Assembly: GCA_051117555.1 (NCBI GenBank)
Contig: JBNPEG010000103.1
Coordinates: forward strand, 1 to 12,816
Origin: Elainellaceae cyanobacterium
GTDB lineage: Bacteria; Cyanobacteriota; Cyanobacteriia; CAZCXK01
Direction of reading: 5' to 3'
DNA: 12,816 bases
Shown here in pieces: positions 163-12,753 of this stretch. Positions within the stretch are counted from its first letter, which is position 1. The number at the start of each line of letters is the position of its first letter. A program made the translations under genes and the position numbers. A model generated the notes under the pieces. The model saw nothing but the letters and a program-made list of their open reading frames with translations, was not told where the DNA came from and searched no databases.

Positions 163-2559
163 TCATTTGTGTTCAAGCATTTTGTAGAGGCTCAGACTAA
201 AAATTGCCGCCAGTCCCAGGGCTAATGCTGAGGGAACTAAAGGCACCCACCATCCTTGAACAAATAACAAAAGGCATACTCCCCACAGCGTCGTTAATCC
301 AACTAACAAACTGATGACTCGCAAATAGGGCGATCGCCACCATCCTACAAAGATTGCTCCCACCATTGCCCATCCTGCAATCCAAAGCATTTCTGCCCAC
401 TCTACCCACCCTGATAATAGAGGACGTTCTCCAAGAGCCGCACTGATGATCGTGCTGGCCATGTGAGCATGCACCACAACTCCAGGCATTCGGTCTGCTG
501 TCTCTCCTCTGCTGTAGGGTGTTAGATGAGTGTCGATTTGCGGATTAACAACTCCAATTAAAACAATGCGATCGCCCACCAGTTCGTTCAGTTGAGAATC
601 TAAGGAACCACTTAAGATTTCTCTTAAATGCACAATTTCTGGACGTTTGACACGGTAGTTGATCAATACTTGATAGCCTCCTACATCTTCTGAAAAAAGC
701 TGATAGCTCCCCGTTCTTTGCTGAAGTCGTTGAAAAATTTGATGGCCCAGCCGAATCTGCTGAGTGTCATCAGAAGGTGTTGTAACCCACTCCATTGACA
801 TATCCGCTTGCTTTTCTAAATAGTCTTGAGCGATGCGGAAGCTAAACGATTCTTCGGTTGGACAAATCTCATCCGGTGGCATTCCCAAAAATTGCCGACG
901 AATCACACCATCTGGATCAAGGGGAATGTTGCTGAATCCTAAATGATTGGTTGGAAAATTCGTCGTGGGTGGCGCAATTCCTGCAAGATTGCTGACGGTG
1001 TTTCTAGCTCGACAAATTGCAATTAAACCCTGATCAGCCAGTTGCGGCTGCAAATCTTGACGAAACGGAAAATCGTGAATGATATCTAATCCAACAACGC
1101 TGGGATGATGGGGCGAAATCTTTTGTAAGAGCTTGAGTAACGCATCATCCGATAACGATCCTTCCATCTCCATCCCTTGACTGCGCTGATACTGAATATC
1201 GTCTTCTGAGACAGCGACAATCAAAATTCGATCATCTGGAGCGTTTTGCCCTAGTCGAATACGAATGAAGTGGTCATAGGCTTTCAGTTCCCAGTTTTGT
1301 AAACCACCAAGCGATCGCACTCCGACGACCAAACTGGATACAAGCACGCTACTAAGCAGAGCCGTTCCATATTTTCTGAACGCCATGCGTCGAGAGTTTG
1401 TTTGACTGGATGCCGCAACAACTGAATCTGCGACAGGCGATAGTTGATTGGCTAACTGATGCTCTGGACTGACTAAATCAGACCACTCTAGGGACAATGC
1501 AGCAGGCTGCTGATAGACAATCGGCAACCAACTTGCACAGGGATAGTTTTTCTCCAATCCCTGCAACCGTTCCCGTGCTTCTCGCTCTGCCAGATGCAAC
1601 GGCTGACCTTGGGCAAAAGCTCTGAGAAAATACTTGAGGAACTGCTGGGCAATTGGGTCAGGGACTGCTTCTCGCATCACAATCATGTGGGGTAGCTGAA
1701 GGTCAGCTAAGTCGCGAGCCAACCCCAAGCCATCGCAGGAATTAAAGATAGCAAGCTGCAGTCCATTGGCGATCGCCCGTCGCATGCCGTATCTGACCTC
1801 ATCCATAGTTAAACAGGTGGTTGAGTTCAGCCGCAAAACTCCCTGCCCCTCTGGCTCTGTTTCACTATGTCCAGCAAAAAACAAAATATCCCAAGACTGC
1901 TCATATAAAGCATCGTTGAATTCGCGATGGGACGGTTCTACCAAAAACTCAATATGAGCTCCAGGGAGCTGGTTTAAGGACTGGCGATCGCTCTCTAAGT
2001 CAATATTTTGGCGATCGCCCAGCACGGCTAGGATATTCACCAGCTTTTGATCTGAAGCTGCTGCGTTACGTTCGTTCAAGCACGGATGCGATCGCATCCC
2101 GCTCAAGGCAATTTCCGCCTTAGGATACTGTTCAACGAAATCCCACAAATGCCATGGAAGCGCCTGAGCCTCGGCACTAGCCGTACGAATCAGCACTTGA
2201 ATCGCATCACTCGGCGTGAGTGCCTGCCGCAAGTGCAGATCTACATCCCGAAACGAGTCCGCCCGCAACCACTGCTGAAACTGCTGAACCAATTGCTGGG
2301 CAGAGTCTATACAGGCGTCTATCGGATTAATCGTGCCGTCGTATTTGATTTTGTAAGGTTTTAAGGCGCGAGTTGGTGTAGAAAGGCGGCGATAGTCGTG
2401 TTGCCATTGAGTGAGATGATTCGACAGAAGCATAGAAGGCGGAAGATAGCCATCAATGCTGGTGCCGGCAGCCACGTCGCTCTGCCCAACATGCAATGTG
2501 ACATAAGATCCTTGATGGTCGAGGTTGCCCTTCAGCTCTAAGACAGCACGTTTATTCAT
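163..2559 (-). CDS. Membrane CHAT (caspase/HetF-like peptidase) + CHASE2 sensor domain protein
   Basis: 798 aa. CHAT motifs: LPWHLWDF, LFFAGHS (His231), IFNSCDG (Cys275), MREAVPD, CASWLP. One TM (~aa 398-420), then CHASE2 motifs (WELKAYD, DDRILIVAVSEDDI, VVGLDI, DPDGVIRRQ, DRIVLIG, MPGVVVHAHM) and three C-terminal TM helices. Confidence 0.92.
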   Translation of the reverse strand: MNKRAVLELKGNLDHQGSYVTLHVGQSDVAAGTSIDGYLPPSMLLSNHLTQWQHDYRRLSTPTRALKPYKIKYDGTINPIDACIDSAQQLVQQFQQWLRADSFRDVDLHLRQALTPSDAIQVLIRTASAEAQALPWHLWDFVEQYPKAEIALSGMRSHPCLNERNAAASDQKLVNILAVLGDRQNIDLESDRQSLNQLPGAHIEFLVEPSHREFNDALYEQSWDILFFAGHSETEPEGQGVLRLNSTTCLTMDEVRYGMRRAIANGLQLAIFNSCDGLGLARDLADLQLPHMIVMREAVPDPIAQQFLKYFLRAFAQGQPLHLAEREARERLQGLEKNYPCASWLPIVYQQPAALSLEWSDLVSPEHQLANQLSPVADSVVAASSQTNSRRMAFRKYGTALLSSVLVSSLVVGVRSLGGLQNWELKAYDHFIRIRLGQNAPDDRILIVAVSEDDIQYQRSQGMEMEGSLSDDALLKLLQKISPHHPSVVGLDIIHDFPFRQDLQPQLADQGLIAICRARNTVSNLAGIAPPTTNFPTNHLGFSNIPLDPDGVIRRQFLGMPPDEICPTEESFSFRIAQDYLEKQADMSMEWVTTPSDDTQQIRLGHQIFQRLQQRTGSYQLFSEDVGGYQVLINYRVKRPEIVHLREILSGSLDSQLNELVGDRIVLIGVVNPQIDTHLTPYSRGETADRMPGVVVHAHMASTIISAALGERPLLSGWVEWAEMLWIAGWAMVGAIFVGWWRSPYLRVISLLVGLTTLWGVCLLLFVQGWWVPLVPSALALGLAAIFSLSLYKMLEHK

Positions 2560-2582
2560 GAGCTTGTGTTAACTCACCATAC

Positions 2583-3569
2583 CTACACCACAAATGATTC
2601 ATCCAGGGTCACATCTCCCAGCTTGATTTGCAACGAAAAGCGATCGCCCGGCACGGCATGAAACCCCAACTCAATCATCCGATTTTCATCTCGCGCTTGC
2701 GCTTGCATCACGGGTTCACCCACCGCATCCAAGACAGCCATTTCCAATCCTGTTGGCAAAAACACTTGCTGAGTTGGAGGTAATATTTTTAAGGCAATGT
2801 CCATTTCTGTGGTTGACTTAGGCATCAGTTCTGCAATCAGTAGAATCGTTTCAATCCCTTGATGAGTGGGTAGTTCTAAGAATTTGCCCCGAGTAATCCG
2901 CGACAATGCTGGCACAACCGATTCAGACTCAACCGATTCAGACTCAGCCGATCGAGTACTTCGCCATTGATAGTTTAATGAAGGTGTCACCAACAGCTCA
3001 TCAAGCGATCGCCAGCCTGCTTCAATCTGACCTTTCATCCAGTGGGTAAACTGGGTGACTGGATGAGGGACAGATTGAGGCTTACATTGATCAATATACA
3101 GAGGGAATTCTGCCATCGGACGAATCTGGCTCAATGCGAGTGTTTCATCTTCAACGTGATGGGTAAATCCAAGAATCAGAGCGTTTGACTGATCGGGCTC
3201 AATCTGCACCACCACATAGGCAAGGCGATCGCTCTGCACGTCAGTCGGAACATAGCATACTGATGTATCTTGCACTGATGGAGACATTGGACGACATTCA
3301 ATCCGTCCTCGTCCGATAACTTCCAAATCAGCAACATTCGTGGTCATCCGCATCAACGGATTCCAGCTATCACAATTCGATGGGTCAGCGGGAATGCCGA
3401 GAATTTTCAAATAGTTATTGACGGCACAAACGGCTAGCGTATTCAGGTGAACCTGCCGTGCTCGTGTTTCATCGGACTGCTGCTGGGCAAATTGACGGGC
3501 AATATATCTCGCCTCTTGCGTAATGAAGACGGGCACCGCTACCTCCTCTGCTCGGATTGGGTCAATCAT
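2583..3569 (-). CDS. DUF1822 family protein
   Basis: 328 aa with the family signatures ARQFAQQQ..RQVHLNTLAVCAVNNYL, DSWNP, ADLEV.G.GRIECRP, DRLAYVVV and a C-terminal beta domain (LPTGL..VLD..GE, GDRFSLQIKLGD..E.FVV). Gaps of 23-25 bp to both neighbours suggest an operon. Confidence 0.88.
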   Translation of the reverse strand: MIDPIRAEEVAVPVFITQEARYIARQFAQQQSDETRARQVHLNTLAVCAVNNYLKILGIPADPSNCDSWNPLMRMTTNVADLEVIGRGRIECRPMSPSVQDTSVCYVPTDVQSDRLAYVVVQIEPDQSNALILGFTHHVEDETLALSQIRPMAEFPLYIDQCKPQSVPHPVTQFTHWMKGQIEAGWRSLDELLVTPSLNYQWRSTRSAESESVESESVVPALSRITRGKFLELPTHQGIETILLIAELMPKSTTEMDIALKILPPTQQVFLPTGLEMAVLDAVGEPVMQAQARDENRMIELGFHAVPGDRFSLQIKLGDVTLDESFVV

Positions 3570-3594
3570 AATGGCTACCGTGTTGAATGAAGTC

Positions 3595-4251
3595 TTATTT
3601 TGGGTTTTCTTCTAAATATCCTTGGGCAATTCCAAACTCTCGCAGGAGGGGCAGACAATTGCGGTTGTAGAATTTGGGTAGGTCTTTCGCTTCTGCTGCA
3701 TTGAGGTCAAACTCATGGGCAATATCCTGCCAGGGGGTTTCAGATGGAAAGCGTTTGAGAAACAGCACTTGAGCGTTGATGTCTGGACGCTTGCGGAAAC
3801 ACGTTGTGCGAAGCTTATCGTCTGGATCATCACGTACCCAACTAAGGGTGGTGTACCAGATCTGCTCGGCTCGATCAATACCAGGATTGGAGGCTAGAGT
3901 GTTGAGGGGATTGAGCATAGTGCCATCCTCCGTTGGCACAGGGTTCACTATTCGATCCTGAGCGCGAATTTGGCGATCGCGCCATTTCTTCAGCGTCCAT
4001 TTTAAGCGGTTATCGATCCAAGTGGTGACAGCGCTGAGCGTCGGGTCATATTCGTCTAAATGGTGGCAGCAATACTCCCACGTTTCTTGAAGAGCGTCCC
4101 CATAATAGGGAGTGGTTTCGTTCCAGAGTTTCCTTGATCCCATGACTAATCGATAAATTTCCTGGATGCACTGCTGACGCTCCACGCTCCGGGAAGGATG
4201 GGTGCAGGCGTCGGCAACCAGTTGCTTCAAGGTGTCGTTTAATGCACTCAT
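3595..4251 (-). CDS. Cyanobacterial sigma-70-family (ECF-like) sigma factor
   Basis: 218 aa. LKQLV.DAC.HP..S.ERQ, YYGDALQETW, YDP....VTTWID..LKW (region 2-like) and C-terminal PWQDIAHEF...LPKFYNRNCLPLLREF (region 4-like HTH). This family is typically found upstream of DUF1822 genes. Confidence 0.8.
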   Translation of the reverse strand: MSALNDTLKQLVADACTHPSRSVERQQCIQEIYRLVMGSRKLWNETTPYYGDALQETWEYCCHHLDEYDPTLSAVTTWIDNRLKWTLKKWRDRQIRAQDRIVNPVPTEDGTMLNPLNTLASNPGIDRAEQIWYTTLSWVRDDPDDKLRTTCFRKRPDINAQVLFLKRFPSETPWQDIAHEFDLNAAEAKDLPKFYNRNCLPLLREFGIAQGYLEENPK

Positions 4252-4902: not shown

Positions 4903-5025
4903 TCAAGTAATTGAGGCATAAGAGTCTCAGTAGATCGAAAAGCCTTGTCAAACCGGGGATGAGAACAAGAAAAGGGGTAAGGTCAGGCTAAGCAAAATTT
5001 CAAACCAGTGCCATGACCTTACGAT

Positions 5026-5109
5026 GTCTGCCTTCTGATTTCTCCCTTCTCCCTTCTGATTTCTCCCTTCTCCCTTCTGATTTCTCCCTTCTCCCCTCTC
5101 TCTTCTACC
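5026..5109 (+). repeat. STRR-type heptamer tandem repeat with 21-bp higher-order period
   Basis: (TTCTGAT TTCTCCC TTCTCCC)x3 at 5033-5095, flanked by degenerate heptamers, directly downstream of the cas6 stop. Confidence 0.9.
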
Positions 5110-5110
5110 T

Positions 5111-6316
5111 TTAATTCTCTTCTTCCCTCAGCGATCGCCTCGCCAGTTTGGAATAGGTTTTTACCGTTTCGTAAGGCATTTCTAAATCCGCAGCAATATC
5201 CTGTAGCGACTCGCCAAACTCCCGTCGCGCCAGGATAGTAGCATGGGTTTCTGCAATCGCCTGAGCGCGATCGCCCCCTTTTCGCTTGCGTTGAGCAATA
5301 AATCGATTCGTTAAGTCTTCGATGCGCTGGGCTAGTAGCTGAGCTGTTTGGGTTGCTGGGTCAAGGGCAAGCTCATCCGTTTTTTCTGGCGATGACCAGC
5401 CTAGTTGGGTTTGACCTAGACCAAACGTTGTTTTGTGACCCGTGCCGCAGTAGGGAGCAAGATGAACAAGCGTATAAGCCAGTTGAACAAATTCAGGGTG
5501 CTTTTGGGCGGATGCAGTCAAGCCAAACTCAATCGCTCCAGTGAAGCCGGTTACTGATCCTCGTTTACCTGCTGCTACTTTGAGCGATCGCAGGTGGTGT
5601 CGCTGAATGATGATATATTCATCGAGCCAGTCTAAGAACTCATCCTGGTCAACCGGGGTTTGACCGGATAAGTCGTTCCACCGCCGTAGGTAGCTATGAA
5701 AGATATTACGCGGAATTGGCAGTGGTAGATGACGCCCTTTGCTGCGAAAGCTGGTTGGTGAGAGAAAGCTCAGAGCAATGCTGAATTTGGTAGGCGGCTG
5801 CAATTTTGCCAGTTGCGCATAGGTCAGTGGCTCATTCGCAATTTCCACCTGAGCAATTTTAAGCGGAGCATCCCGCAGTTCCAAAACCTCTGGCATACTT
5901 TCCAACCATCGCTGGAGCCACTGTACAACAGGCTTTGAAAGAGCGGTCACTGTCCAACGATAGGTCTGATCCTGGGTCAATCTCAGGTGTTGACCACTGG
6001 GCACGAAAGCACCATCAAGCCCCGAAATCGTGAATGCTTTTTCGGAAGAATCATCATGAAGCTGTCGGGATAAAGCGGGGTCAGTCTGGCGAATTTGATC
6101 GAGAAACCAAGCGTGCAGGCCGATGCTGTATTGAGCGTAGAGGTCGCTATTTTGCAGAGCAACTAAATTAAATCTCAACCCAATCAGCTCGGTCTCATCG
6201 CTCCAGGTTGGCGTTGAACGAGATGAAGTGGAACGGTGTGTGCGGCGTCGAGAGCGCTGAGAGGTCGATTTTGACTTGGTTTGGGTGGTAGTTTTACGAG
6301 TTTTGGATACTGGCAT
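5111..6316 (-). CDS. cas6: CRISPR-associated endoribonuclease Cas6 with C-terminal HTH extension
   Basis: 401 aa. GLHAWFLDQ, LHD...KAFTIS, FLSPTSFR, PLPIPRNIFHSYLRRWN, GFTG and the Gly-rich loop YCGTGHKTTFGLG. The extra C-terminal ~85 aa ends in GESLQDIAADLEMPYETVKTY. Confidence 0.95.
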   Translation of the reverse strand: MPVSKTRKTTTQTKSKSTSQRSRRRTHRSTSSRSTPTWSDETELIGLRFNLVALQNSDLYAQYSIGLHAWFLDQIRQTDPALSRQLHDDSSEKAFTISGLDGAFVPSGQHLRLTQDQTYRWTVTALSKPVVQWLQRWLESMPEVLELRDAPLKIAQVEIANEPLTYAQLAKLQPPTKFSIALSFLSPTSFRSKGRHLPLPIPRNIFHSYLRRWNDLSGQTPVDQDEFLDWLDEYIIIQRHHLRSLKVAAGKRGSVTGFTGAIEFGLTASAQKHPEFVQLAYTLVHLAPYCGTGHKTTFGLGQTQLGWSSPEKTDELALDPATQTAQLLAQRIEDLTNRFIAQRKRKGGDRAQAIAETHATILARREFGESLQDIAADLEMPYETVKTYSKLARRSLREEEN

Positions 6317-6519: not shown

Positions 6520-6855
6520 ATGCGCTTCCTCTCGACCTCAATCAACCTGAGGATGCAGACGTTCATTGAAAACACGAGGACGTTCATTGAAAACGTGAGG
6601 ACGTTCATTGAAAACACGAGGACGTTCATTGAAAACACGAGGACGTTCATTGAAAACGTGAGGACGTTCATTGAAAACGCGAGGACGTTCATTGAAAATG
6701 TTGCCACGTTCAAAGAAAACGTGAGGGCGTTTATTGAAAACGTCGTCGTGTTCAACGAAACGCTGCTATTTTTGCCGTGCATCTGCGTATCACTCGGTGC
6801 GATCGCACTCTTCTGCCTTGTAAGGGCTTTGCATGCAAAGCCCCTACTGCAATGA
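6520..6855 (+). CDS. Possible heptad-repeat (TFIENxR)n protein with hydrophobic C-terminus
   Basis: The frame stays open across the array, with an ATG at 6520 after GAGG. Several repeat variants are synonymous in this frame (TTC/TTT, AAC/AAT, GTG/GTT/GTC). It may be a by-product of the repeat. Confidence 0.3.
   Translation: MRFLSTSINLRMQTFIENTRTFIENVRTFIENTRTFIENTRTFIENVRTFIENARTFIENVATFKENVRAFIENVVVFNETLLFLPCICVSLGAIALFCLVRALHAKPLLQ
6559..6768 (+). repeat. 21-bp tandem repeat, ~10 units, consensus ACGTTCATTGAAAACRYGAGG
   Basis: Units start at 6559, 6580, 6601, 6622, 6643 and 6664 (near-identical), then 6685, 6706, 6727 and 6748 (progressively degenerate). There are no unique spacers. Confidence 0.95.
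6820..6847. repeat. GTAG-type REP-like palindrome
   Basis: GTAAGGGCTTTGCATGCAAAGCCCCTAC, 28 nt, 11 bp downstream of the stop of the 6859-7143 gene. Its ends match those of the element at 9045-9072. Confidence 0.75.
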
Positions 6856-6858
6856 TTA

Positions 6859-7143
6859 CTACTGCTCGCGCGATCGCCAGCGAATCAAATAACTCATCAC
6901 GTCACCCTCCTCTGGTGTAACTAAGATGCCTGTTTCAGGCACTGTGATCAACTGACTCCATAATCCTTGCTCCACATAGTTGAGCACGTGCAAACGGTTG
7001 ATCGTGTGCCGCACTCCTGCACGGGAACCGAGCAGAATATGACGCAAGGGTTCTCGGCTGGGTTGAGCAGACGGGGATGCAATCAATAGGGGCTCGGTCG
7101 CCTCACTGTGAGAGCGAGGCGAGGATAGATACGGTACTAACAT
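6859..7143 (-). CDS. Small conserved cyanobacterial hypothetical protein (94 aa)
   Basis: ATG at 7143 with GGAGG 8 nt upstream, a better start than 7293 in the track. The motif REPLRHILLGS..GV..TI..LHVLNY.E...WS....GDVMSYLIR matches an uncharacterised cyanobacterial family that I recognise from memory. Confidence 0.8.
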   Translation of the reverse strand: MLVPYLSSPRSHSEATEPLLIASPSAQPSREPLRHILLGSRAGVRHTINRLHVLNYVEQGLWSQLITVPETGILVTPEEGDVMSYLIRWRSREQ

Positions 7144-7231
7144 GAGGGATTCCTCCAACGTAATGGGGTAGGAATCCCAAAAATTTAGCCACCCCAGACA
7201 TGGTGCAGTGCGGGGCGGCCTCAGGTAACAT
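7103..7231 (-). CDS. Candidate 42-aa upstream/leader ORF overlapping the start of the 94-aa gene
   Basis: GGAGG-8nt-ATG(7231), reading MLPEAAPHCTMSGVAKFLGFLPHYVGGIPHVSTVSILASLSQ-stop (TGA 7105-7103). It runs through the RBS hairpin of the downstream gene in a different frame. Confidence 0.45.
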   Translation of the reverse strand: MLPEAAPHCTMSGVAKFLGFLPHYVGGIPHVSTVSILASLSQ

Positions 7232-7237
7232 AGGCAC

Positions 7238-7324
7238 ATCCTCCGCGACAGGGTTCGTCTGTCGTGGGGGTCAGGTATCGGGAGTTGGTGCAAACAGCTC
7301 TCGGTACCGCCTGACTAAATTTTT
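7238..7324 (+). ncRNA. Candidate cis-antisense small RNA (~87 nt, two hairpins plus U-tail)
   Basis: Hairpin 7240-7270 (12 bp, 2 G-U) and hairpin 7274-7308 (14 bp, 3 G-U) pair fully only as + strand RNA. They are followed by TAAATTTTT and preceded by a -10-like TAACAT at 7226-7231. The ends are inferred. Confidence 0.55.
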
Positions 7325-7510
7325 GGGGAAACCAAGCTGCTAGACAAACAGCTATAGCATCCAACGCTATCGGATTTGGGGATGGGAGTCAAGTCAAAAT
7401 GGCTACCAAACCTCAGCCATATCTGGATAGAATCGATGAATGACAGACCTGCACATGTTTGTAATGCAACGCCCAATCTCTGGCTCCTGTGGGGGTCGGG
7501 CGATCGCTCC

Positions 7511-7590
7511 TTGGTTGTCTCTAGTTGTCTCTAGTTCTCTACCTTCCGCTTTCCGCCTTCCGTCTTCCGCCTTTCGCCTTCCGCCTTCCA
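7511..7590 (+). repeat. Short tandem repeats: 10-mer CTAGTTGTCT-like x3, then STRR heptamer TTCCGCC x6-7
   Basis: ttggttgtct ctagttgtct ctagttctct, then ttccgct ttccgcc ttccgtc ttccgcc tttcgcc ttccgcc (7544-7585). Confidence 0.85.
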
Positions 7591-7597
7591 TTTGCAA

Positions 7598-7603
7598 TAT
7601 AAT
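7598..7603 (+). promoter_or_regulatory. Candidate -10 box for the Uma2 gene
   Basis: Perfect TATAAT 70 bp upstream of ATG 7674, which has a GAGGAG RBS. No clear -35. Confidence 0.3.
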
Positions 7604-7673
7604 GACAGCAGTCTTAACAAATACATTCTGATATAGGACGAGCATTCCCAAAGCACCTATTGAGGAGCGTCAA

Positions 7674-8243
7674 ATGACCTCTGTTGCGCTAAACCTCAAA
7701 CCCATTACTCATTTATCTCGTGAGCAGTTTTATGCGCTGTGTCAAGCGAATCCAGACCTCAAGCTTGAACGATCTGCCCAAGGAGACTTGATCATCGTGT
7801 CACCCGTTGGAGGAACTGGAGGAAGCCAAGAAGCCGATTTGCCCATCGACTTAGGGCTCTGGAATCGCCACAACCAGTTGGGAAATGTATTTAGCTCCTC
7901 GACAATCTTCAGCCTGCCTAATGGATCTGACCGCTCTCCTGATGCAGCCTGGGTCAAGGGCGATCGCTGGGATGCCTTGACACCAGAACAACAACAAGGC
8001 TTTCCGCCCCTGTGTCCTGACTTTGTGATTGAATTGCGATCGCCTACCGATCGCCTAAAACTCCTACAAGAAAAGATGCAGGAATATATTGACAATGGGC
8101 TACGCCTTGGCTGGTTGATTGATCCGCAAAACAACCAAGTCGAAATTTATCGCCCCAATCAAGCCGTTGAAATTTTTCCATTCCCTGCTCAACTCTCAGG
8201 AGAAGACGTGCTGCCTGGTTTCTCATTAACCGTCGGAGGATGA
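7674..8243 (+). CDS. Uma2 family (DUF820) PD-(D/E)xK endonuclease
   Basis: 189 aa. QFYALCQANPDLKLERSAQGDLII, FSSSTIFSLPNGSDRSPDAAWV, PLCPDFVIELRSPTD, KMQEYIDNGLRLGWLIDP, LSGEDVLPGF. Confidence 0.95.
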   Translation: MTSVALNLKPITHLSREQFYALCQANPDLKLERSAQGDLIIVSPVGGTGGSQEADLPIDLGLWNRHNQLGNVFSSSTIFSLPNGSDRSPDAAWVKGDRWDALTPEQQQGFPPLCPDFVIELRSPTDRLKLLQEKMQEYIDNGLRLGWLIDPQNNQVEIYRPNQAVEIFPFPAQLSGEDVLPGFSLTVGG

Positions 8244-8304: not shown

Positions 8305-8541
8305 ATGCAGTTAACCATTCAGGCCATCTATGAGGAAGGTGTACTCAGACCAACTCACCCCATCGAATTGCCAGACGGCACCCAAGTTTTAATCGTGATT
8401 ACTACCCCTGAACCTATTTCCGTCTCTGATTCGGCAGGAATTTTAGCTGAAATCGCGAGTCTTCCTCAAACATCCCCCACTCAGGAGTTTTCCAACCGTA
8501 ATCATGATGAACAGCTTTATTCTGCTGAGGCAAATCCGTGA
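8305..8541 (+). CDS. DUF104/AF2212-like antitoxin
   Basis: 78 aa. TIQAIYEEGVLRP..PIELPDG..V motif, C-terminal FSNRNHDEQLY, GGAGG RBS and a GTGA overlap with the downstream PIN gene. Confidence 0.85.
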   Translation: MQLTIQAIYEEGVLRPTHPIELPDGTQVLIVITTPEPISVSDSAGILAEIASLPQTSPTQEFSNRNHDEQLYSAEANP

Positions 8542-8935
8542 TTTTTGTCGATACGGGTGCTTGGTTCGCCAGCGCTGTACCCTCTGATTCAGATCATTCA
8601 GCAGCTACACAGTGGCTGAAACAGAATGTCGAACCACTACTGACGACTGACTACATCATTGACGAGACATTGACATTGCTAAGAATGCGGCGGGAACAGC
8701 AGCGGGCGCTGGCGCTGGGGGAAGCCTTTTTCTCCGGACGGCTATCGAGCATCTATTACTTAACAGACGAGGATGTTCGCGCAACCTGGCAAATTTTTCG
8801 TCAGTTCTCCGATAAGAATTGGAGCTTTACCGATTGCGCTAGCAAGGGAGTTATCGAGAAGTTGAATATTTCCCAAGCCTTTGCTTTGATAATCATTTTC
8901 GTCAGTTTGGCTCTGTCAAGGTTGTGCCGGAATAG
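8538..8935 (+). pseudogene. vapC: VapC/PIN-domain toxin with a 1-bp frameshift near the 3' end
   Basis: MIFVDTGAW, TTDYIIDETLTLL, WSFTDCAS. Adding one T to the run at 8885-8887 restores the canonical ending QAFAFDNHFRQFGSVKVVPE-stop (TAG 8933-8935). As given, the frame reads on to 9131. Confidence 0.85.
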
Positions 8936-8960
8936 TTTTCCATGCTTTAGTCATCTAGTA

Positions 8961-8985
8961 GTAGGGTGCATCAATGACGCACCTA
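8961..8985. repeat. GTAG-type REP-like hairpin / possible terminator
   Basis: GTAGGGTGCATCAATGACGCACCTA followed by TTTTT, 25 bp after the restored vapC stop. Confidence 0.55.
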
Positions 8986-9044
8986 TTTTTAACGCAAGAG
9001 GCGATCGTTCTTATAGACATAAGCTGATTCTGGGTATGAACTGG

Positions 9045-9072
9045 GTAAGGGCGTTTGGCCAAACGCCCCTAC
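9045..9072. repeat. GTAG-type REP-like palindrome
   Basis: GTAAGGGCGTTTGGCCAAACGCCCCTAC, 28 nt, between the convergent vapC and WYL genes. Confidence 0.75.
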
Positions 9073-9132
9073 AGCCGTTATCTGCGATCGCCCTTTATTC
9101 TTCTAATGGGCAACGTCGGATTGCGCGGTGAC

Positions 9133-10299
9133 TTAGCCTTTGTAGAGTTGGACAACACCCAGCGCCGCTTTGTAATGACGTTCTGCCAGTTCGGGCGGGG
9201 TCAAGATTTTTGCAGCATTCATAAACCGATAAACCCATCGACAAAACTCATTGAGCGATCGCCCCGGCAATTCCACCGAATAATCAACGTAGGGATTATC
9301 TGGATTGCGCCCTTTGCGAATCACCTGCTTAGGATGACGACGCTCGCCCTCCACGATGAACGGCAGCGCAGGCGGAAAAAACCTCACCACAACATTGGTA
9401 AACTCAAGCGTTCCTGCTTTTTCAGCGGCTTGTTCGTCAGGTTTCCCCAAATAAAGCCCCCATCCTTGAGTCAGCAACTGATGGGCGATCGCCAATCGCT
9501 CCAACTGGGTAGACGTACTTCGCCCTGAGCCATCGAGAACCTTGATGAAATCTCTAAGGCGATCCATTCGCTCGACTTCAAAATGTCCATCATCAACGTA
9601 TTCATAGAGGAGATACCAAGCAATATCTGAATAGATGAGCTGAATGGGGTAGACTGCTAAATGCCCCGTGTTCATTGTGTCATAAGGTTCGCGCTGTCGA
9701 TAAATCTCAATCGGCTGCCCTTCAACAATTGCATCTTCAATGTCTTTTAGCCGATGAAACAAAGACGTGCGATACTGCCCCCGCTGCATCATTTCATCGG
9801 GGTCAGTGTGCACAATGACGCGGTTCAGGTGCGATCGCACGGGATAAAACAACTGCCCGTCGCTCTCCAGATTCAACCCCCGCAGCCGCAGTTCCAACCG
9901 TTCACACACTCGACGCGCTGATGGATCGCCTTGATGACGAGCCTGCGACAAAAGCGCCTGCACTGCTAATTGAAGCTCGTCGTAAGTTAATGCGCCAGTG
10001 CCAAGGTAATATCCCCAGCGATACATGCGCCGATCGAGGATGCCATACTGTCTCAACACTCTCAGATCTTTACGAATCGTCGAGATTGAGTAAGCCGGTA
10101 AGTCAATTCCACAGCGTTTTGCCGTATCTTGCAGGCGATCGCTTACTTCTTGAAGTGCTTGATGATGGTGTCCATCGGATAAATTCTCTGAGTCTGCACT
10201 CCCCACCCCTGGATACTGTATGAATGTGGCAATCAACAGTAGCAACCGCTCAAAAGACTGGCGATCGCTATAGGAATGAAGAATTGGCTTCTTAACCAT
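9133..10299 (-). CDS. CRISPR-associated WYL-domain transcriptional regulator (wHTH-WYL-WCX)
   Basis: 388 aa. FERLLLLI and wHTH YSISTIRKDLRVLRQYGIL..GYYLG; WYL core VYPIQLIYSDIAWYLLYE..ERMDRL; C-terminal HPKQ..EFCRWV.RF...AKILTPPEL. Divergent from cas10. Confidence 0.92.
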   Translation of the reverse strand: MVKKPILHSYSDRQSFERLLLLIATFIQYPGVGSADSENLSDGHHHQALQEVSDRLQDTAKRCGIDLPAYSISTIRKDLRVLRQYGILDRRMYRWGYYLGTGALTYDELQLAVQALLSQARHQGDPSARRVCERLELRLRGLNLESDGQLFYPVRSHLNRVIVHTDPDEMMQRGQYRTSLFHRLKDIEDAIVEGQPIEIYRQREPYDTMNTGHLAVYPIQLIYSDIAWYLLYEYVDDGHFEVERMDRLRDFIKVLDGSGRSTSTQLERLAIAHQLLTQGWGLYLGKPDEQAAEKAGTLEFTNVVVRFFPPALPFIVEGERRHPKQVIRKGRNPDNPYVDYSVELPGRSLNEFCRWVYRFMNAAKILTPPELAERHYKAALGVVQLYKG

Positions 10300-10389: not shown

Positions 10390-10512
10390 GGAGAATTACA
10401 AACAATATTTTCTTTTTAATGACTTTTATTGAGATCCCCTGTTAGATTAATCATCGATCGGACTAAGGTGAAGAGACTTTTGCCATCCATGGCCCTATGG
10501 AAGGAAATCATC

Positions 10513-12753
10513 GTGTCAAACGCATTCTGGCAAGCAAAAATTTGGGGACTACTGCATGACCCTCTGCTCAAGCCTTCTCGTGAAGACGAAGATGAATACC
10601 TCAGACTTTCACAGGGTCAACACTCCTCAGACTGGCTCAAACAGGCAAGCTCTATCGCTTCAGCTAGCGATCGCGCCCTGTTTGACTTAATACCTGGTCA
10701 GCCTGACCCCGATCGTTCGGTTACGGTGAGTCATTTGCTATCTGGTGAATCCTTGCCCCTTAGCTACAACTGGCAGGCTGTGATGCAGTTGCATAGTCAA
10801 ATTGAATCAGCAATCACAGAGCACAGTCCTCTTAAATCTGTTATTCCACCAGAAACATCCCCTGTTAGCGATCTGAAGCAACAATTTTGGTGGCTGTGGC
10901 GATGCTTACCAGAAGTCATTGCTCAAACTGACTCTGCTCAATTACTGACGCCAGCAACCCACATTTTGCCAGATGTTTCAATTTGGAGTCAGGCCAGTCT
11001 TACGGCAGCTATGGCGGGAACCTTGGCTGAGTACAGCGATACGTCAGAGAGCAATAGTGGCGATCGCCCCTACCTGACGGTCTTCAGCTTCACTCCTGTG
11101 CAAGAGCTAATCAAAGCCAGTCGCAAAATGCGCGACTTTTGGGCGGGTTCTTGGGTACTTCATTATCTCTCAGCCAAAGTTTGTTGGAAGTTAGCCCAAC
11201 AGTATGGCCCAGATAGCTTGATATATCCCAGTCTGTTTCAACAGCCATTGATCGATCACTGGGTGCTAGAAGAGTGGGATAGCTTCGGTGAATGGATTAT
11301 GCCCAAAGATCAGCCAAAATCGCTGCGGTATCGCAAACTGCTCACTGCTGGGTTTCCTAATGTAATTGTGCTGCTATTGCCCCAAGGAAAAGTCAAAGCA
11401 GCAATGCAAACCGCTCGCCAAACTCTAAATGAGGAGTGGCTTAGCTTAGGAGAAGAGGTATTTGCAGAATTACATGATCAACAGCAATGGATGCCTAGCC
11501 TTGAAGCGGACAATCGTACCTGGAAAGGCTGGCTGAGGTCTCAGTGGCAGCCCTATTGGACTGCTTTACCCGTCGGTCACTCCGAGACAGATTATTTATC
11601 TATAGAAGCTACAAGTGATGAATTCGAGTCGTGGTTAAACAATCAAAACTTTGCGTGCAATCTTAAAAAAGAAGATCACCAGCTCTTTGCTCAAGAAGAG
11701 AACTCTTTACTTAAAGCAGTTTTGGTCAGTCAGTCCGGTATAGATCAAGGTGGTACTGTTACGGTCAATGCGGGTTCTTGGTGTCCCTATCTTTTTGACC
11801 AACTCCGCTTCAGTCTTAGCTCGGTCAAAAGTGCTCGGGTTTGGAAGTTGCCTACAGCATTTGGTCCCCATTCTACTATCTCAGGATTTGGCCCTGTTGT
11901 ATATCCTCATGACAAGCAGAAGCGAATCACTGAAACCGATGCTAGCCAATTTTGGGGAAATCAGTGGGAAGCAGATCTTAGTGATGCTGCACAGCCACAC
12001 GACCGTGCAGGACTATTTGATGGTCGAGAGCAACTCAATGCCAGCGAAACTCTGAAGAGAGGACTACATAAGATTCTACACCGCAAGAAAGTCCTCAATA
12101 TTGAAGATCGCGACCTTAAGAAAGATGCGATCGCAGCAGCATATCCCGATCTCACTGCTGGCATTGCAGGTTATCTCAAAACCTACAAAGCATTTGAGGA
12201 TCAACAGGAAAATAGTGCACAGGTGCCCCGTAAGCAGCATTTCGTCCAGGTTTGCAACAGAATTGTTGAGACGCATTCTTGGGCTGAAAAAGTAGCCGAG
12301 GAAATGCGAAAGAAATGGGGTATTCCCTGGATAGACGACAATTCTGAACCTAAAAAATACCATTCTCGATTTCTGAACCCTGGTTGGCTGGTAGAGGATG
12401 CCATTACACCCAAACTCACTGAACTTAGGCAATCACTCAAACACGCTATTCTTTCTGAAGACGCAACTCAGATAAAGCATTTTAGGCAGGAAATCACGCG
12501 CCAAAAAGTGGAATATCGCGAAGACATTCGTAGCATCATCGCCGATTACTATCCCAACAACAACCCCGCCGATTGGTATGTTCTAGCCGCCGGAGACGGC
12601 GATGGGATGCGCCGCTGGCTCAAGGGTACACCCCTAGAACACTACAAGGATTACATGCCGTATGATGCAGAGCTGCCTGAGCCAATCCATAGGGAGCACG
12701 TCACTTTCTACGTAAAAAAATACTGGTCAGGAGAGAGGTCGTCATTCAGATAA
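10513..12753 (+). pseudogene. cas10: Type III-B Cas10/Cmr2, interrupted by an IS at ~12691 (5' fragment)
   Basis: Probable GTG start at 10513 after AAGGA. Motifs WQAKIWGLLHDP, IASASDR, FSFTPVQELIKASRKMRDFWAGSWVLHYLS, AGFPN, QLNASETLKR, WYVLAAGDGDGM. There is no GGDD motif, and the last ~20 codons are IS-derived. Confidence 0.92.

Follow-up and report, generated by a model that had tools for sequence, protein, structure and literature searches.

In the tisB/istR-1 and zorO/orzO systems of E. coli, the antisense RNA targets the 5′ leader of the mRNA far upstream of a ribosome site that is closed by structure. These antitoxin RNAs are divergently encoded and have short complementarity to their targets, the toxins being membrane peptides about 29 aa long. 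SymE represents a larger soluble toxin, and CopA/CopT and RNAI/RNAII are examples of loop-specified antisense control of plasmid copy number. To our knowledge, toxin–antitoxin (TA) systems of type I are hardly known in Cyanobacteria. Here we analyze a 12,816-nucleotide (nt) stretch of DNA from an Elainellaceae cyanobacterium (GenBank assembly GCA_051117555.1, contig JBNPEG010000103.1; hereafter the window), which is the entire 12.8-kb contig C21 of a 6.06-Mb cyanobacterial assembly. Within a locus of CRISPR-associated (cas) genes, its minus strand carries a small gene for a protein of 94 aa. The gene belongs to a repeated unit that probably also encodes, on the plus strand, a cis-antisense RNA pairing with the 5′ leader of the gene well upstream of its locked ribosome site, in a layout like that of type I TA systems. 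Two sets of RNA structures, their assignment to strands, promoter-like boxes and a one-to-one coupling of RNA element and gene were all observed in silico.

As summarized in a review (PMC8594479), the hallmarks of type I TA mRNAs include a stem-loop formed by the Shine–Dalgarno (SD) and an anti-SD sequence, a 5′ stem-loop and long-distance pairing, the antisense RNAs being 60–200 nt long and the toxins usually 20–60 aa. The RNA side of this description is matched in silico by our unit, with a predicted antisense RNA of about 88 nt that has its own −10-like box, an SD-sequestering hairpin (P1), a small hairpin near the predicted mRNA start (P6) and a long-range stem (P5). The protein side is unmatched: the protein and its family (78–140 aa) are larger, and it is predicted to be soluble, whereas type I toxins are usually hydrophobic or membrane-active. 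No homology to a described toxin or antitoxin family was found in Rfam, Pfam, NCBIfam, PADLOC or PHROGs. An earlier sequence-only reading of this locus had proposed a module resembling a type I TA system; the layout of antisense RNA and locked SD agrees with that proposal in silico, and the size and character of the protein do not.

The only cyanobacterial type I TA candidate found in our literature search is MsoT1/MsoA1 of Microcystis aeruginosa, which a 2025 paper presents as the first (PMC12390103). MsoA1 is described there as a cis-encoded antitoxin RNA of 56 or 83 nt with two hairpins that overlaps the 3′ end of the gene, and MsoT1 as a basic protein of 63 aa with two membrane helices. 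Our unit is likewise cyanobacterial with a cis-encoded two-hairpin RNA, but its protein is predicted to be soluble and near-neutral, the 5′ leader is the target, and there are about 23 copies in the genome. In Clostridioides difficile, type I TA modules have been reported beside CRISPR arrays (PMC5961336). The likeness to these modules lies in a small, putatively antisense-controlled gene in a CRISPR-cas locus. However, one of about 23 copies sits in the cas locus here, the window has no array, and the proteins have neither size nor character in common.

We aligned 13 leaders, six from the source genome and seven from other assemblies, and counted for each helix the alignment cells that pair solely as G-U on one of the strands (Table 1). 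For P3 and P4 together, 49 cells were G-U pairs on the plus strand only and 2 on the minus strand only. P2 gave 11 cells for the minus strand against 1 for the plus strand and has two compensatory positions. The counts were 4 (minus) against 1 (plus) for P5, with the row of locus L019 dropped because its contig diverges after P4, 2 against 0 for P6, and 5 against 3 for P1, where two rows are visibly misaligned. On these strand-specific wobble counts, we assigned P1, P2, P5 and P6 to the mRNA, whereas P3 and P4 were placed in an RNA of the opposite strand. In one set of 12 sequences compared on both strands, 92.6% of the P3 and P4 cells are paired on the plus strand versus 78.0% on the minus strand, and eight pairs versus one vary on one side while staying paired.

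The plus-strand structure was further supported by a covariance model (R1) built from the element. In the alignment of the 28 best R1 matches, 93.6% of the cells are paired and 20 of the 26 pairs have changed on both sides; the covariation score is 0.59 versus 0.23 in shuffles, none of 500 of which reaches it, although this alignment favors structure since it was fitted to the model. The RNA at 7238–7326 folds with −46.9 kcal/mol on the plus strand versus −27.1 kcal/mol for its complement. For the larger region 7130–7340, the plus strand gives −91.4 kcal/mol (z −5.4, 0 of 200 shuffles as good) and the minus strand −71.1 kcal/mol (z −2.5, 3 of 200). When R1 was run without filters on 33 sources, it gave 32 antisense matches of 24–107 bits, together with 11 weaker, shifted matches of 16–28 bits on the sense strand. 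In all 32 antisense matches, a −10-like hexamer ends 8–9 nt before P3; 22 are strict TAnnnT, among them TAACAT, TAGAAT, TACAAT, TAAAAT, TATAAT and TACCAT, and 10 have one deviation. A plus-strand open reading frame (ORF) at 7200–7343 was considered as a coding alternative and rejected, since indels between copies break its frame.

In the mRNA leader, the SD (GGAGGA, 7156–7151, minus strand) lies six bases before the ATG, and the perfect 9-bp stem of P1 covers its AGGA. The anti-SD arm GGGAUUCCU (7178–7170) and the SD arm AGGAAUCCC (7154–7146) are unchanged in 9 of the 13 leaders and carry single mismatches in the other 4, while the loop varies. P1 has an energy of −16.3 kcal/mol in full and −6.8 kcal/mol without its outer GGG/CCC. 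P5 corresponds to an inverted repeat of 13–16 nt (7176–7191/7312–7327) and has compensatory changes and a duplex energy of −14.5 kcal/mol; its 3′ arm closes with a GGG (7178–7176) that P1 uses as the start of its anti-SD arm. P6 is kept in all 12 leaders that reach it, and so is a second promoter hexamer of the form TAnnnT (TAGCGT, TACATT, TAGATT, TAAATT or TATGAT). The position of the conserved TTGACT and TAnnnT boxes, 17 nt apart, would place the mRNA start near 7357, with P6 at the 5′ end and a leader of about 215 nt. The consensus fold of the sense strand begins with P6, continues with P5, which encloses weak sense versions of P4 and P3 together with P2, and ends with P1. Between C21 and contig C248 of the same genome, the leaders are 73% identical despite a synonymous divergence of 0.94, and thus the leader is also under purifying selection. 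Beyond the stop codon, a palindromic hairpin that recurs in the copy on contig C20 and in L019 is possibly the mRNA 3′ end or a stabilizer.

With respect to these structures, the sequence-only reading was largely correct: the stem over the ribosome site is present and conserved in related leaders, and so are the two hairpins with five G-U pairs confined to the plus strand, the structures being kept by compensatory changes. The TAACAT box is conserved as a −10-like element, and the U-tract is present in this copy. The plus-strand antisense element over the leader, which it had predicted, is borne out in silico by wobbles, energy and the −10-like box, and homologous leaders show the covariation and strand bias it had named as a check. 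A SymR-like motif, for which it had suggested scanning Rfam, did not appear; neither this nor a riboswitch was matched (0 matches at E ≤ 1).

Table 1 Positions of the unit, its RNA structures and the other features of the window (numbering from the first letter of the window)
Feature	Position	Strand	Basis or remark
94-aa gene	ATG 7143–7141, stop 6861–6859	−	ORF list
Whole repeated unit	6796–7479	−	extent common with the closest paralog, on C20, 92% identity (blastn; window versus L031 too)
Unit core common with the more distant copies on C248 and C116	6856–7409	−	blastn
mRNA promoter-like boxes	TTGACT 7392–7387, 17 nt, TAGCGT 7369–7364	−	read from the alignment
P6, small hairpin AGCUG/CAGCU	7335–7353	−	at the predicted mRNA 5′ end
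P5 5′ arm CCCAAAAAUUUAG (mRNA)	7316–7328	−	beneath the 3′ tail of the proposed antisense RNA
P5 3′ arm CUAAAUUUUUGGG (mRNA)	7176–7188	−	inverted repeat I1; in the sense-strand RNAalifold consensus
P2, leader hairpin	7188–7195/7212–7219	−	wobble valid on the mRNA strand only; in RNAalifold
P1, SD-sequestering hairpin	7146–7178	−	inverted repeat I5, 100%
Palindromic hairpin 12 nt past the stop codon	6820–6847	−	inverted repeat I2, 14 nt, 93%; no U-run
Proposed cis-antisense RNA, about 85–90 nt	7238–7325	+	start placed by the −10-like box, end by the U-run 7320–7324
−10-like box TAACAT of the antisense RNA	7226–7231	+	
P3	7240–7251/7259–7270	+	2 G-U pairs, turning into A-C mismatches on the minus strand
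P4	7274–7287/7295–7308	+	3 G-U pairs that would be A-C on the minus strand; extendable by GUCA/UGAC 7270–7273/7312–7315
Terminator-like hairpin	7399–7420	−	just upstream of the mRNA −35 box; found by consensus scan; common to the closest copies only
CHAT-CHASE2 (798 aa), DUF1822 (328 aa) and unnamed 218-aa protein	163–4251	−	row downstream of cas6
Heptamer tandem repeats, intergenic	TTCTCCC ×10 at 5023–5111; CCTTCCG ×7 at 7542–7589		
Cas6 gene	5111–6316	−	Pfam; 401 aa; flanks the small-gene unit on one side
21-bp tandem repeat GACGTTCATTGAAAACGTGAG	6558–6743		8.9 copies, 85% matches; between the unit's 3′ end and the Cas6 start
Uma2 nuclease gene (PF05685)	7674–8243	+	Pfam; divergent neighbor of the 94-aa gene
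AF2212-like small protein overlapping a PIN-domain gene	8305–9131	+	VapBC-like pair
WYL/WCX regulator	9133–10299	−	Pfam; adjoins Cmr2
Cmr2	10429–12753	+	Pfam

By sequence comparison, the unit is self-contained, about 0.55–0.68 kb long and repeated about 23 times in the genome. Homology with the copies on C248 and C116 extends from the promoter to the stop codon and no further. The leader DNA recurs on C20 (94%), C248 (74%), C116 (72%) and C168 (77%, partial), and the protein at 23 places at E ≤ 10, the copies being 41–93% identical in protein. R1 found six strong and eight weaker copies of the RNA element in the genome as well as copies in six loci of other genomes, all of them on the strand opposite to the family gene. 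A refined model (R2) found 23 copies in the source genome and 29, 8 and 4 in the other three genomes searched. In the source genome, 22 of the 23 are antisense to a family ORF and 75–253 nt upstream of it, while a contig end truncates the 23rd. There are five family-ORF rows without an RNA match: two represent second fragments of genes (on C20 and C168) whose element was matched, and three (C86, C23 and C118) are truncated or weak. Judged by position and strand, RNA element and protein gene are coupled one to one. The known range of the element is the Elainellaceae/Leptolyngbya-like group in which we searched.

A second, more distant subfamily encodes proteins of 78 aa (14 copies examined) and has its own conserved leader of about 230 nt, in which every stem is spelled differently and the layout is kept. 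A differently spelled stem occupies the position of P1, and the long-range stem GCGCUCAAAC/GUUUGAGCGC shares its GCGC with the SD hairpin GCGCUCCUU/AAGGAGUGU. A P2-like hairpin with sense-strand wobble and two antisense hairpins behind a −10-like box are also present, and the consensus energy is −50.0 for the antisense strand versus −32.7 for the sense strand. Two members of this subfamily, on C95 and C219 (L075 and L078), carry an insertion of about 95 nt with short repeats of the AAGGCA type between leader and ribosome site.

The 94-aa protein consists of a variable Pro/Ser-rich N-terminus and a conserved C-terminal domain of about 65 residues (LRHILLGS...LHVL.Y.E..WS). The ratio of nonsynonymous to synonymous divergence is 0.11–0.32 in five of six paralog pairs, synonymous divergence being saturated in the sixth, and the substitution pattern thus indicates that the ORF is a real gene under purifying selection. 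The computed grand average of hydropathy (−0.23), isoelectric point (6.9) and lack of membrane character predict a soluble protein. As the sequence-only reading had stated, the family is uncharacterized: the protein and its relatives matched nothing in Pfam, NCBIfam, PADLOC or PHROGs, and Pfam gave 0 matches in 115 family members. A profile search found 376 cluster representatives at E ≤ 0.001 among 1.84 billion. Among the 120 matches listed, all named relatives are annotated as ‘hypothetical protein’ and come from filamentous cyanobacteria, the ESM Atlas gave only ‘hypothetical protein’ clusters of Cyanobacteriota, and close relatives carry names from Elainellaceae. In a sample of the phylum, 51 of 401 genomes and 24 of 155 genera contain the family, often in multiple copies. 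The AlphaFold2 model (predicted local distance difference test, pLDDT, 74.2; predicted template modeling score 0.60) shows a disordered N-terminus followed by a strand, a helix and a final strand, with no membrane helix. Fold searches with this model stayed at noise level (Foldseek best E 0.35, VIA best Z 4.0; no SymE-like chain of the AbrB type among the matches of a query with pLDDT 74), and a profile search of the PDB with the family reached only E 1.2 at best. The conservation pattern of the family is structural rather than catalytic. Two copies look decayed: C168:17723–18121 has lost the LRHILLGS motif, and C86:57728–58045 is without the N-terminal half and the RNA element.

One possible working mode of the unit is as follows. 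On the minus-strand mRNA, P1 would lock the ribosome site of the 94-aa protein, and P5 would close the upstream part of the leader while having three G residues in common with the anti-SD arm. The antisense RNA is fully complementary to the leader over about 88 nt, covers one arm of P5 and stays at least 82 nt away from the ribosome site. Its P3 and P4 loops would make the initial contact with the sense region, which is weakly folded, and pairing would then zip up; since the target region folds with only −27.1 kcal/mol versus −46.9 kcal/mol for the antisense RNA, the target appears comparatively open. Binding would remove P5, P1 could then form in full, and translation would stay off. The long sense–antisense duplex might also become a substrate for a double-strand RNase. 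In a partition-function model in which the antisense target was blocked, the mean probability of an unpaired SD fell from 0.22 to 0.10; it decreased in 11 of 12 leaders and was unchanged in the remaining one. The P5/P1 switch is thus a result of modeling. We infer from the features above that the RNAs are produced, where they end and how the switch runs; that the protein inhibits growth we regard as possible, but clearly short of probable.

Several observations weigh against this picture. The antisense RNA is a prediction from sequence, and a strict scan of 6700–7700 for the sigma-70-type consensus called neither its promoter nor that of the mRNA. The RNA lacks a canonical terminator: the U-run (TTTTT, 7320–7324, plus strand) begins 11 nt past P4, or 4 nt past the extended stem, and it reads TTCTT in the C248 clade and just UUU in the 78-aa subfamily. 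Both this U-run and the P3 sequence GGAGG are also constrained by the other strand and are therefore not assignable to one RNA. The modeled change in SD accessibility is modest, the SD being mostly paired in both states. As noted, a soluble protein of 94 aa with an isoelectric point of 6.9 and no match in PADLOC, Pfam or NCBIfam is unlike the usual type I toxins. In addition, family genes of other genera have different, shorter leaders, in which the RNA model finds nothing comparable (R2, applied to 28 loci from other genera, gave 16 matches at E ≤ 1, the best at 0.025, and none occupied the position of the element). Thus, the protein does not always need the RNA device, and the family is wider than the element. 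Among these other leaders, one genus (L039–L053) shows, about 100 nt upstream of the family gene, a terminator-like hairpin (GACAGCA...TGCTGTC, then TTTTCTT), and another group (among L055 and L058–L065) has a leader of about 100 nt with a hairpin built of two GCGATCGC sites.

We then compared the proposed arrangement with other explanations of the same data. Without any antisense RNA, all helices could belong to the mRNA leader as a lone cis-regulatory device, such as a thermometer, a ligand sensor or a protein-binding leader. The clear mRNA-strand character of P1, P2, P5 and P6 and the sequestered SD would suit such a device, as would the fact that the plus-strand RNA is a prediction. This explanation is nevertheless improbable, given the wobble bias of P3 and P4, their fold that is 20 kcal/mol better on the plus strand, the −10-like box at a fixed distance before P3 in all 32 antisense matches and the absence of a riboswitch match in Rfam. 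The sequence-only reading had favored the logic of hok/mok/sok, in which translation of the 94-aa protein depends on an overlapping upstream ORF (uORF) of 42 codons and the antisense RNA blocks the ribosome site of that uORF. This copy does have the uORF, running from a GTG at 7237 (44 codons) or an ATG at 7231 (42 codons) through P1 to a stop at 7103, and the antisense RNA covers the GGAGG (7243–7239) in front of it, which is itself one arm of P3. However, a uORF stands at the homologous place in only 4 of the 13 leaders (C21, C20, L017 and L018), which are all at least 92% identical, and the other nine are without it; the C248 and C116 leaders have GAAGG for GGAGG, a 5-nt deletion and no ATG there. 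The ATG is nothing more than the CAT of TAACAT read as its reverse complement, and it is lost with the box variants TAGAAT, TACAAT and TAAAAT. Four near-identical leaders are no more than chance would give, and we therefore rejected a mok-like coupling and consider the hok/mok/sok logic very improbable.

The dispersal of the unit raises the question of mobility. About 23 dispersed copies with variable neighbors and an inverted repeat of 13–16 nt could indicate a small mobile element, related to miniature inverted-repeat transposable elements or derived from an insertion sequence, with the hairpins serving as DNA or transposition signals. We give this very little credence: homology between copies is bounded by the promoter on one side and by the stop codon or 3′ hairpin on the other, and no terminal inverted repeats flank the unit. 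The inverted repeat lies inside the unit and shows the covariation of an RNA stem, and the ORF is under purifying selection in copies that have diverged instead of being near-identical. The variable neighbors also bear on the earlier suggestion of an addiction module for the cas locus. At five other copies, they include a LysR regulator, a glycogen phosphorylase, TPR, PIN, caspase-FGE, a reverse transcriptase, CHAT, DUF4258, AAA/subtilase and glycosyltransferases, and none of the 23 neighboring ORFs scanned there is a cas gene. As the neighbors change from copy to copy of a unit present 23 times in the genome, we rejected a CRISPR-specific addiction module.

The main rival for the function of the protein is a role as a partner of Uma2 nucleases. 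With the same RNA layout, the protein would be a non-toxin, namely a small regulator or partner and possibly an inhibitor or controller of Uma2, with its level tuned by the antisense RNA. In a Pfam scan of 13 loci from other genera, seven (L043, L054, L055, L056, L058, L063 and L027) have Uma2 within 1.5 kb. With a home-made hidden Markov model, it is found at this distance in 19 of 42 loci, 13 of them from one genus, and from genomes with 54–72 Uma2 matches we estimated a chance of about 4% per locus. In L043, L054 and L056 the small gene lies 130–210 nt upstream of Uma2 on the same strand, and in the window the two genes are divergent neighbors; the solubility of the protein and its structural pattern of conservation would fit such a role too. 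In the source genome, however, Uma2 is within about 1 kb of just 2 of about 22 copies, the Uma2 proteins beside the family gene in other genera share only 20–29% identity with that of the window, and the orientation relative to the small gene varies. The Uma2 of the window is 66–80% identical to at least 119 proteins among the matches listed, some from Gloeothece and Moorena, which speaks against a fixed pairing. We therefore consider this role a serious but rather unlikely explanation, and the cis-antisense RNA acting on the leader of a locked gene, in a type I TA-like layout, remains our preferred reading.

For this preferred reading, the geometry of the leader target is, in our analysis, best read as most like that of tisB/istR-1 or zorO/orzO and unlike that of hok/mok/sok or symE/symR. 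Common to the first two and our unit are an antisense target in the leader, a closed ribosome site, control at a distance and a small stand-alone unit. Unlike them, the unit has complete cis overlap over the whole antisense RNA and encodes a soluble protein of an unnamed family, and a relay through the GGG shared by P5 and P1 is proposed in place of the standby site of that class. With hok/mok/sok, ldr/rdl and symE/symR it shares a cis-encoded antisense RNA with stem-loops, the SD/anti-SD stem and long-range pairing in the mRNA, and with LDR the multicopy repeats of about 0.5 kb. Since the uORF is not conserved, the mok-type coupling of hok/mok/sok is missing. SymR overlaps both the SD and the start codon, whereas the RNA proposed here is clear of SD and ATG.

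The hairpin loops behave differently from the rest of the element. In the four closest copies, stems and tails are 96–100% identical, the stems themselves 96–98%, but the P3 and P4 loops only 45%. The P4 loop (7288–7294) is GTGCAAA in C21, the exact reverse complement of TTTGCAC in the 92% identical copy on C20 (L002), and this difference looks like a hairpin-loop inversion. As both RNAs are read from the same DNA, a loop change keeps the cis pair matched and separates it from its paralogs. The hypervariability of the loops would thus fit a recognition that begins at the loops, each copy having its own key; alternatively, the loops may be under relaxed constraint. In this respect the unit resembles CopA/CopT and RNAI/RNAII, where stable hairpins offer loops as the first contact and loop changes alter both partners to give private specificities, although no replicon is involved here and the loop–loop contact is suggested only by the hypervariability. 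In its widest form, our model would be a superfamily of 20–30 private ‘locked genes’ per genome, each a soluble growth-arresting protein of a new fold family with its own antisense RNA, in which the two hypervariable loops act as a copy-specific key against cross-silencing by paralogs. This would be a new family of type I TA systems, the first large one in Cyanobacteria, with a P5/P1 switch acting at a distance on the ribosome site. We regard this wider form as conceivable, but on balance unlikely.

The surroundings of the unit are a cas locus that is interleaved with TA-like genes, namely the AF2212-like/PIN pair and the WYL/WCX regulator next to Cmr2. A repeat scan found no CRISPR array in the window and detected only tandem repeats, the 21-bp array and the heptamer arrays. 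The 21-bp repeat is outside the small-gene unit, recurs next to the ortholog of the unit in a sister assembly (L017/L037, 86% identity) and might act as an operator array preceding cas6. Residues 356–398 (approximately) of Cas6 gave a sub-threshold match to sigma-70 region 4 (E 1.7e-4, 21.6 bits, cut-off 25.7), and this C-terminal stretch may be a DNA-binding tail. The terminator-like hairpin at 7399–7420 possibly insulates the small-gene unit from upstream. With regard to the Uma2 neighbor, Uma2 genes occur within 1.5 kb of family genes far more often than their copy number predicts, with different Uma2 subfamilies and variable orientation.

Comparative sequence alone separates two overlapping RNAs here, by the strand on which their wobble pairs work. 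With the covariance model, the promoter boxes and the switch residues all defined, the model is ready and testable. If the protein is toxic, it would found a new family of toxins, unusual in that the product is soluble. Otherwise, the unit would be a widespread control device, combining antisense RNA and leader, that is absent from Rfam, and it would provide a way into the role of Uma2 nucleases, which are very abundant and unexplained. The hypervariable loops, in turn, amount to an experiment set up by nature on the avoidance of cross-talk between paralogous antisense pairs.

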